In this document: positions 1,290-2,480 of the stretch, piece by piece
Layout: every line of letters starts with the position of its first letter
Numbering within the stretch: position 1 is the stretch's first letter
Origin: Escherichia coli
GTDB taxonomy: Bacteria > Pseudomonadota > Gammaproteobacteria > Enterobacterales > Enterobacteriaceae
Length of the DNA: 4,057 bases
Assembly: GCF_003334305.1 (NCBI RefSeq)
Contig: NZ_QOWS01000051.1
Strand: one strand, 5' to 3'
Position numbers and translations under genes: made by a program
Notes under the pieces: generated by a model
The model's input: the letters and a program-made list of their open reading frames with translations, nothing else
What the model was told of the DNA's origin: nothing
Databases searched by the model: none

Positions 1290-2480
1290 AGGGCAAGATT
1301 ACGAAAGCCCGCTCCCCGCAAGGACTGACGCCAGATAGTTCCTGTCCATGGCTGCTTTTCGCATCTTACGTCTTAACCCTGCCTTGAATACCTTATCATT
1401 CGTCAAAATATTAATAGCAATGTGCCGTATCCCTGAAAATAATTCCGCTGCATTTCCTCTTCTTATTCTGCAGTCGTCTTCATTCATTACCACGTCCAGG
1501 CGCCAGTGCAGCTTATTCTCCACGTGCCAGTGATTTCGGATCGCTGTGGCGAACTTCTCTGCAGTTAAATCAGCAGAGCTGATATAATATCTGACCGTCA
1601 TTTCGGGTTCTTTCTTTTGTTCTGCTATTATGGACCGAAAGGAGACTGCCACGCATAATTTCTTCAGCCCTTTCCATTCAAACGTGAAATCAATAAGTTC
1701 ATCAGGGGCATCGCAAACAATATGAAGACGGATTTCTTCTCTGCCGTGACTCTTTTCACTGATTGCGTAACTGTCATGCTCTGGATTATTTAATTCTTTC
1801 AGCGGAAATTTTTCCTCAAAGGCTTTATTTAGCCGCCCCTGGTTTCCTTTTACCGCGAATAAATAATCACCTCCCTGTTTTTGTATCTTCTCTGCAATAT
1901 CTTTCTGGCAACCCATCGCATCAGTTGTGATGATTTTTCCTTTAATATCCAGCATGTTAAGAAGTTCTGGGATAGCTGTAATCTCATTAGATTTCTCATC
2001 CGTCTTGATCTGTCCGATGACCAGACTGTGCATTGTTGAGAACGCACTAATGACATGAATCGCTCCCCTGCGGCGACTCTTGTCATAAGAGTGCCGGAGC
2101 GTTTTTCCATCAATTGCAATGACGTCTTTATCATCTGAAGAATGGCAGTCACGCATCCAGTTAATAAAGCACTCGTGAAATTTTGCAGGACTGATACAGG
2201 ATACAACTCTGGCAATGATATCGTGAACAGGAATACCATTTTCAAAATCACCATATCACTTCAAAACATCGGGATGTGTTTCCCCAAAATCCTCTATATC
2301 TTCCCAGCCTTCTGCACCAGAAATAACGGCACAAATAGTCAACAGTAGAATATCCGATAATTTATGTTCCACTTTCCAGGCTTGTCTGTAATCGGGGATA
2401 ACAGAAATATGTTCCATCAATTTTTTAAGTTCCATTTTGTTCTCCTTAATTATGTAAGGAGTATTTGATCATGTATAAGC
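1290..2480 (-). mobile_element. ISAs1-family insertion sequence (H-rpt-like); boundaries approximate, terminal inverted repeats not resolved
   Basis: Contains the transposase reading frame 1299..2435 and its ribosome-binding site. The outer limits are set by the terminator at 2550-2573 and by the SD/ATG of the downstream gene at 1267-1285. I could not find convincing terminal inverted repeats or target-site duplications by eye. Confidence 0.5.
1299..2435 (-). pseudogene. ISAs1-family transposase (H-repeat-associated protein), full length 378 codons, interrupted by an in-frame TGA at codon 60 (2256-2258)
   Basis: ATG at 2433-2435 preceded by AAGGAGA; translation [59 protein letters not shown][37 protein letters not shown] then continues in the same frame as the ORF-track product [18 protein letters not shown]...[12 protein letters not shown] (1299..2156). 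The sequence matches the E. coli H-repeat (ISAs1 family) transposases as I recall them. Confidence 0.85.

Follow-up and report, generated by a model that had tools for sequence, protein, structure and literature searches.

Organization of the locus

The window, a 4,057-nucleotide stretch of DNA from Escherichia coli (assembly GCF_003334305.1, contig NZ_QOWS01000051.1), is chromosomal and has full-length matches in 85 complete genomes at 98.8-99.8% identity. In the best match, strain A7 (locus L001), the window lies inside a T6SS cluster that adjoins fadE-ivy-yafV. The minus strand of L001 carries, in order, tssBC, hcp, vgrG, a full-length rhs gene, a small ORF, an "ISAs1 family transposase (internal stop)", genes for a hypothetical protein and a DUF3969 protein, a second (frameshifted) rhs gene, ydcD, two ISAs1-type pseudogenes and yafV, and strain WY517-2 has the same gene layout. 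All features of the window read on the minus strand and are listed below.

4057..2984, minus strand: 3' part of the main, T6SS-linked rhs gene (NCBIfam RHS_core, E=1.8e-114; Rhs_assc_core)
3460..3446, minus strand: end of the Rhs core, DPLGL motif, inside the main rhs gene
3445..2987, minus strand: YkuD/L,D-transpeptidase-like toxin tip of the main rhs gene (Pfam YkuD, E=3.4e-5)
3006..2614, minus strand: putative immunity gene of the main toxin, 130 aa (ORF; hypothetical protein WP_001101835.1)
2581..2613, no strand: 33-bp spacer from the immunity stop codon to the element end (from the sequence)
1289..2580, minus strand: H-rpt/ISEc1 element (ISAs1 family), 1,292 bp, defective copy (from border comparison across flanks)
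2548..2580, minus strand: relic H-rpt end (IRL, transposase-proximal), CAGGAAAAGCATCACGTGATGCTGATTTTTTGC on the minus strand, identical to the solo remnant in L016 and L012
2435..1299, minus strand: transposase pseudogene, 378 codons (NCBIfam transpos_ISAs1)
1289..1313, minus strand: transposase-distal terminal inverted repeat (IRR), CAGGGCAAGATTACGAAAGCCCGCT, 19/25 positions against the other end in L006 and L009
697..1288, minus strand: orphan Rhs C-terminal toxin tip, 5'-truncated at the element junction (homology to the full-length rhs gene of L003)
357..697, minus strand: DUF3969 gene, putative immunity gene of the orphan toxin (Pfam DUF3969 on the repaired translation)
1..276, minus strand: start of the next rhs gene, PAAR-like N-terminal region (MSGKPAARQGDM...), first 92 codons (NCBIfam RHS_core positions 1-89, E=2.8e-52)

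The main rhs gene is annotated "RHS element core protein" and stands downstream of hcp-vgrG in L001. Its stop codon is overlapped by the 130-aa ORF, which has a lipoprotein-like N-terminus (LVIGC) and whose position suggests that it is the immunity gene. For the rhs gene that starts at 276..1, the annotation of L001 and L002 gives a frameshifted RHS gene. A search of the whole window against Rfam returned nothing beyond a chance-level match to CrcZ. Both ORF order and annotation place the element between the toxin-immunity pair and a downstream module of small genes, as originally predicted, and the order hcp-vgrG-rhs-immunity-H-rpt, which is the position of an H-rpt, occurs in L001, L002 and L005.

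Borders and coding state of the element

The element had been proposed to be an H-repeat of the ISAs1 family within an Rhs locus, which the transposase profile match and the identity among copies confirm. The transposase gene matches NCBIfam transpos_ISAs1 (NF033564) with E=1.9e-109 after its internal stop and 1.2e-7 for the first 59 aa. At the nucleotide level, the element is 95-98% identical across its full length to yhhI, ydcC and other copies (98.3% to yhhI over window 1289-2554; 96-97% to ydcC-type copies over the full length). In genomes 99.8% identical to the window, PGAP annotates an ISAs1/ISEc1 pseudogene ("ISAs1 family transposase, internal stop").

For the border search, the element with 150 bp of flank on each side was compared with 5,426 complete E. 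coli genomes. Copies in other contexts, which occur in thousands of genomes, start matching at window 1287-1289 and stop at 2580-2584, and copies with a different end subtype stop at window 2554. Ten copies that sit in different flanks have in common the sequence from CAGGGCAAGATTACG (window 1289) to ...TTTTCCTG (window 2580), and copies from the plasmid collection have the same borders as the chromosomal copies. Borders at 1289 and 2580 give an element of 1,292 bp, which is the classical H-rpt size. With this length and one 378-codon gene, the element also has the length (about 1.2-1.5 kb) and single ORF of the ISAs1 family. The extent of 1290-2480 given earlier was therefore correct on the left to within one base but ended about 100 bp short on the right.

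The transposase gene is a pseudogene. An in-frame TGA at 2258..2256 replaces, at codon 60, the CAA of intact copies. Intact copies encode the domains DDE_Tnp_1_assoc (PF13808, residues 8-94) and DDE_Tnp_1 (PF01609, residues 102-342), and the TGA falls within the former, N-terminal domain; the largest remaining ORF, 2156..1299 (285 aa), keeps only the DDE domain. Each of three copies at the aspV locus is interrupted by a nonsense codon of its own, in every case no further than codon 60, and the remaining 318 codons are open. The nonsense codon and the degenerate proximal end described below are best accounted for if the window H-rpt is a dead copy that is probably immobile. Intact 378-aa transposase genes are present at other E. 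coli loci and would be a possible source for mobilization in trans.

Terminal repeats and a relic end

Terminal repeats of the ISAs1 family are 14-22 bp long and start with CAGGG, with a direct repeat of roughly 10 bp at the insertion site (PMC11946415); ISArsp11 is one family member with a CAGGG start (PMC6305408). The left, transposase-distal end is intact in the window (CAGGGCAAGAT...) and has the CAGGG start typical of the family. In the well-preserved copies L006 and L009, the two ends, which have a CAGGG start, agree at the 19 of 25 positions listed above. The right, transposase-proximal end of the window copy, CAGGAAAAGCATCACG, agrees with the left end at 9/25 positions ungapped and about 16/26 with one gap, and this degenerate arm has CAGGA and a 1-nt indel. 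An automated repeat scan across the element ends found no terminal inverted repeat in the window copy and only short, chance-level repeats; one of the repeats, D12 (13 nt, 85%), was rejected as a terminal repeat because it does not abut the element ends. The degenerate right end explains why the repeats were missed both by eye and by the scan. Thus, the earlier statement that no inverted repeats could be found by eye holds for the window copy, in which the scan found none either, but family-type repeats are present in better-preserved copies. The concern that the element might have no recognizable ISAs1-family ends does not apply, as such ends are present, intact on the left and degenerate on the right.

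The origin of the right end became apparent from loci L016 and L012. Directly after the immunity gene, these loci carry a solo H-rpt end remnant, which unrelated DNA (about 173 bp) and a 15-bp end relic separate from a complete H-rpt with an intact transposase gene. The window tracks the sequence of complete elements up to GCGAATTATTTAGT (2534-2547), and positions 2548-2580 are identical to the solo remnant and differ from the ends of complete elements. This identity indicates that the last 33 bp are a relic end fused onto an H-rpt body. The fusion is ascribed to a 252-bp deletion between direct repeats, with GCGAATTATTTAGT as the crossover zone.

The relic end also contains the sole minus-strand terminator-like site near the immunity gene, AGCATCACGTGATGCT followed by GATTTTTTGC (2573..2558), with a fold of -16.3 kcal/mol and a modest z-score of -2.5. 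The palindrome (2558-2573) and its T-run lie within the relic end, 7 bp from the element end, and other H-rpt end subtypes are without the palindrome, which indicates that the hairpin is element-derived and travels with the immunity gene. The original prediction had the element separating the terminator of the operon from the downstream gene; instead, the terminator-like hairpin lies inside the element. The hairpin may well act as the terminator of the rhs-immunity transcript.

The downstream module is a truncated Rhs tip with its putative immunity gene

Positions 965-1288 of the window correspond, with 93.5% nucleotide identity, to an internal part of the full-length L003 rhs gene. The L003 protein reads ...RLDPLGLSAALGAGALTAMGTGSEVGTEIGS/VGGPPGMLVGAAVG..., and homology to the window starts at the slash, which is the exact element border. 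The downstream ORF is therefore an orphan Rhs C-terminal tip, cut 25 codons after the DPLGL position, in which the entire Rhs core and the 25 residues that follow DPLGL are missing. Whether upstream sequence of the downstream module had been displaced was a question raised at the outset, and the comparison with L003 answers it: that sequence is missing.

Within the tip, PGAP calls an ORF at 1269..817 with its start at ATG 1269. An AGGAGG hexamer lies at 1285..1280, 10 nt ahead of this in-frame ATG, and corresponds to the codons GTA GGA GGC (Val-Gly-Gly), which are identical in the full-length rhs gene. The strong ribosome-binding site previously assigned to the module thus exists as a hexamer, but it is ancestral Rhs coding sequence rather than a dedicated signal. 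Judged from sequence, internal initiation at ATG 1269 would be possible, and transcription of the transposase gene may read into the orphan tip.

Both genes of the module are pseudogenes. The orphan tip has an in-frame TAG at 819..817, which it has in common with L004, where there is one further stop. The TAA of the orphan toxin (699..697) overlaps the ATG (697..695) of the DUF3969 gene, which is frameshifted in a poly-A tract at 615..609 (7 A in the window and 6 in L004; an open frame requires 8). After repair of the frame, the translation matches Pfam DUF3969 with E=2.8e-19 over a region that spans the frameshift, and the PGAP call covers the 64-aa distal part only (551..357). In 39/39 of the full-length rows listed, the toxin-specific part of the orphan tip is annotated "hypothetical protein" and never as an rhs gene. 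Searches of Pfam, NCBIfam and PADLOC assigned the orphan tip to no family. Assignment of the tip as CdiA-CT tRNase-like was rejected, as a PDB sequence search gave a linker-motif match only, which is too weak to indicate an activity. The orphan module occurs at two chromosomal loci, aspV and RhsE.

Insertion footprint

We also looked for a direct repeat and for an empty site. Target-site duplications were scored for nine copies as in-register k-mers of 8-10 nt with ±3 nt of slack at both ends. The best matches were 0.40-0.63, compared with a mean of 0.57 in mismatched flank pairs, and none exceeded the null. The copy in an IncX4 plasmid record (L015) abuts Rhs core sequence, and inspection by eye found no direct repeat, which brings the sample to ten copies in all, most of them Rhs-linked. 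The plasmid records inspected as possible recent insertions proved to be chromosomal fragments (nrfB, nhoA-ansP) or Rhs-linked (L015), with no direct repeats. The original prediction likewise reported no target-site duplication, a result that now extends to the nine scored copies and the IncX4 copy. The missing 8-10 bp duplication speaks against an insertion event that has been preserved but leaves common descent from an insertion sequence untouched.

At the element, the window flanks are ...CTATTAATAACC on the immunity-gene side and ...CCTCCTACC on the orphan-tip side. A query composed of the two flanks joined directly (400 + 400 bp) found an empty site, in which the flanks adjoin, in 0/5,426 complete E. 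coli genomes, with the matches to both flanks ending precisely where the element begins. The idea of a discrete insertion, for which comparison with genomes lacking the element had been proposed as a check, is not supported by these genomes: they contain no empty site, and the two junctions occur independently of each other, as follows.

Independent junctions and mosaicism

The right flank, which is the 3' end of the immunity gene, is present in 1,019 genomes and joined to an H-rpt in 996. The orphan module is present in 606 genomes and joined to an H-rpt in 600. Both junctions lie on one H-rpt copy in 85 genomes. The immunity-side and orphan-side junctions therefore occur independently. Strain ETEC1731 has the two junctions on two different H-rpt copies of its RhsE locus, where window 2-2554 matches beside the ydcC copy (98%) and window 2534-4057 beside a truncated copy (99%).

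The element itself is a sequence mosaic. At informative sites, its left ~60 bp agree with L004, which has the same left flank, and its right ~330 bp, including the TGA, agree with L005, which has the same right flank; the middle of the element has private variants. In L005 (strain KFu021), one H-rpt stands between yafV and the immunity gene, beyond which comes rhs. Both sides of this locus are collinear with L001, and the ~7.7 kb that L001 has between its two direct H-rpt copies are absent. The single H-rpt of L005 agrees with the yafV-side copy at 28/35 informative sites up to window 2218 and with the window copy at 38/39 sites from window 2257, which places a parental switch between 2218 and 2257. 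Such a switch is predicted by a single homologous crossover, whether read as deletion or as integration, and the L005 element is a crossover product of this kind.

Recombination between H-rpt copies as the probable origin of the joins

Taken together, we consider it very probable that window 1289-2580 is a defective, immobile H-rpt that forms a seam joining two Rhs modules, with no recent insertion. One module consists of the rhs gene with the YkuD-like tip, its immunity gene and the relic H-rpt end, almost always followed by an H-rpt. The other consists of an H-rpt, the truncated orphan tip, the DUF3969 gene and the next rhs gene, nearly always with the H-rpt first. H-rpt copies are 95-98% identical over 1.3 kb, and homologous recombination between them would have brought both modules onto one copy and left a mosaic element without a target duplication. 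The same recombination would add or delete the ~7.7-kb second Rhs module between two direct H-rpt copies. The role of the H-rpt would thus be structural, in that a 1.3-kb homology block common to many Rhs modules could allow them to be joined, swapped or deleted. We infer that recombination, not transposition, made the joins observed here. The first association of an H-rpt with each module may have been a true transposition, the footprint of which was later erased. The H-rpt has been described as a component of composite Rhs elements, and its transposition is unobserved (PMC3032704); the recombination seam proposed here agrees with that view of Rhs elements as composites.

A further proposal, compatible with a recombination seam, is that pieces of the element have been put to use, with the relic end kept as the rhs-immunity terminator and the N-terminally disrupted transposase maybe kept as a DDE-only protein that could serve, for instance, as an inhibitor. 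Only the relic end has the palindrome and T-run; it scores as terminator-like on the correct strand and, in about 1,000 genomes, remains attached to the immunity gene irrespective of the H-rpt body that comes next. However, linkage suffices for this co-occurrence, as the relic is 33 bp from the gene, and the z-score of the hairpin is modest. The nonsense codons of the three aspV-locus copies, all in the first 60 codons with 318 codons left open, would fit retention of a DDE-only product, but three events are a very small, non-random sample, and gene conversion among copies could also keep the transposase body open. We therefore regard such exaptation as unlikely. An extension of this idea, that H-rpt copies in E. 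coli have ceased to act as transposons and are portable recombination joints that would shuttle whole Rhs toxin modules between the two T6SS-linked Rhs loci, aspV and RhsE, and whose pieces (relic terminator, DDE-only proteins) would be co-opted, is speculative and in our estimate improbable.

Very improbable is a simple transposition, in which an ISAs1-family element would have inserted between the rhs-immunity terminator and a pre-existing module, possibly with deletion of adjacent DNA. The discrete, reproducible borders and family-type CAGGG ends would fit such an event, intact transposase genes exist elsewhere in E. coli, and ISAs1-family elements in other bacteria do transpose and leave 10-bp repeats (PMC11946415). 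However, there is neither a target-site duplication nor an empty site in the 5,426 genomes, each junction is far commoner without the other, and the supposed terminator is element-derived relic sequence. Furthermore, about 600 genomes have an identical left junction, which interrupts an Rhs reading frame and is present at two different chromosomal loci; this indicates that the junction is old and travels with the module.

It is equally hard to credit that two direct H-rpts moved the ~7.7-kb second Rhs module into the aspV T6SS locus in the manner of a composite transposon with transposase supplied in trans: two direct copies do bracket the segment in L001, the orphan module does occur at both aspV and RhsE, and intact transposase genes exist, but the outer flanks (...GGGGGAGAGT on the yafV side and CTATTAATAA... 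on the immunity side) are without a duplication, the hybrid H-rpt of L005 with its internal parental switch fits homologous crossover rather than composite excision or insertion, and H-rpt transposition has never been observed (PMC3032704). We rate both transposition-based explanations low because no duplication and no empty site were found and because the single-copy allele is a hybrid. We thus return to recombination between H-rpt copies as the preferred explanation for the window.

Across the 5,426 genomes, the counts indicate that H-repeats are seams at which Rhs modules recombine and do not behave like active insertion sequences. Such behavior fits the classical view of Rhs elements as composites and is ordinary for loci of this type. 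The main value of the analysis is correct annotation, which comprises the true borders of the element and the origins of the apparent terminator and ribosome-binding site, and it cautions that an insertion sequence in a toxin locus need not mean an insertion event.

Comparison with known systems

The element, its family, the type of locus and the phenomenon of orphan modules were already known, and nothing of substance is new here. The modest additions of this analysis are the exact borders of the element, the relic-end fusion, the genome counts that show independent junctions, and the origins of the apparent terminator and ribosome-binding site in element sequence and ancestral coding sequence, respectively.

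In relation to the ISAs1 family, which includes the prototype ISAs1 of Aeromonas salmonicida and ISArsp11, the window element has the same transposase family, a length within 1.2-1.5 kb, a single ORF and, at its left end and in better-preserved copies, the CAGGG start. Unlike that family, it has no 8-10 bp direct repeat at any copy examined, its inverted repeats are imperfect with one arm degenerate, and it gives no sign of mobility.

Orphan Rhs/CdiA toxin-immunity modules, known as "C-terminal tips" that arise by C-terminal displacement, have been described downstream of full-length genes (PMC3150448, PMC3032704). The window module resembles these in that a full-length rhs-immunity pair precedes a core-less tip and a small immunity gene. 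In typical orphans, part of the core is retained and permits recombination with the main gene, whereas the window orphan keeps none, as the cut 25 codons after DPLGL leaves the tip without core homology; the sole long homology beside it is the H-rpt. In contrast to intact orphans, its toxin and immunity genes are both pseudogenes.

The closest counterparts are the H-rpt/ISEc1 copies of K-12 (yhhI in RhsB and ydcC in RhsE), which are the same 1.29-kb unit, 96-98% identical in nucleotide sequence, with the same 378-codon transposase gene. In the K-12 rhsB-yhhH-yhhI arrangement, the H-rpt likewise comes after rhs and its small immunity ORF, as in the window. The window copy differs from the K-12 H-rpt in the TGA at codon 60 and in its proximal end, which is replaced by the 33-bp relic, and its immediate downstream neighbor is a truncated orphan tip, not unrelated chromosomal DNA.

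Nonsense codons in the H-repeat transposase genes of the aspV/yafV locus

Three copies of the H-repeat element (H-rpt) at the T6SS-linked aspV/yafV locus each carry a different nonsense codon in the transposase gene:

Nonsense codons in H-rpt transposase genes
window 2256-2258: stop at codon 60
L001 (strain A7, the best match to the window) 1605-2741: stop at codon 18
L010 (E. coli comparison locus) 1512-2648: stop at codon 44

In all three copies the 378-codon gene is interrupted before the end of codon 60, each time in the region encoding the DDE_Tnp_1_assoc domain; the remainder of the gene is open in each copy. 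If stops fell uniformly along the gene, the chance of finding three within the first 60 codons would be approximately 0.004, a value that describes only three events (n=3) from a non-random sample. The transposase genes at the ydcC, yhhI and nrfB loci are intact. All that is left of the RhsE locus in an ST131-type genome is one intact, solitary H-rpt (ydcC; L006 1502-2792), flanked by yddH and ansP; neither an adjacent rhs gene nor direct repeats were found there. Two plasmid-collection (PLSDB) records also bear H-rpt, namely NZ_OY754386.1 (L013), which contains nrfB, and CP054253.1 (L014), which contains nhoA-yddH-ansP. These are chromosomal genes in their chromosomal arrangement. Both records are probably chromosomal fragments under a plasmid label.

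Relic ends and a second ISAs1-type lineage

In two E. coli comparison loci, L016 (1700-1952) and L012 (9292-9538), a stack of relic H-rpt ends lies with the immunity gene on one side and a complete H-rpt on the other:

Contents of the relic stack in L016 and L012
end remnant of ~79 bp
separate 15-bp end remnant (GTGATCTTTCCCTG)
unrelated GC-rich sequence of ~173 bp

This stacking of ends suggests that modules have been replaced at this site in repeated rounds. Adjoining the yafV-proximal H-rpt of L001 is a divergent ISAs1-type pseudogene (2844-3970) with about 67% nucleotide identity to H-rpt over 640 bp, so this Rhs locus contains two coexisting ISAs1 lineages.

Toxin and putative immunity genes flanking the element

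The tip of the main Rhs toxin (window 2987-3445) resembles YkuD/L,D-transpeptidases (Pfam E=3.4e-5), and the adjoining 130-aa putative immunity ORF (window 2614-3006), which is annotated as two pieces in L005 and L012, encodes a lipoprotein-type N-terminus (…LVIGC…). These features are consistent with a toxin that acts in the periplasm and a periplasmic immunity protein.

The orphan toxin tip (window 697-1288) matched no family in Pfam, NCBIfam or PADLOC. Its N-terminal ~125 residues recur in L003, where they belong to another Rhs tip with a different toxin domain at its end. The poly-A tract of the DUF3969 gene (window 609-615) differs in length, with 7 residues in the window and 6 in L004; the match to one genome (H181) is one base longer, so the tract may have 8 there. 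The TAA of the orphan toxin and the ATG of DUF3969 overlap as TAATG (window 695-699), which is how toxin genes are usually coupled to their immunity genes. Finally, the orphan tip and a CdiA-CT tRNA nuclease (PDB 5J5V/5J43) have in common the linker motif NPN(V/I)GKDLTDxEK (E=3.6e-6, mostly from the linker).
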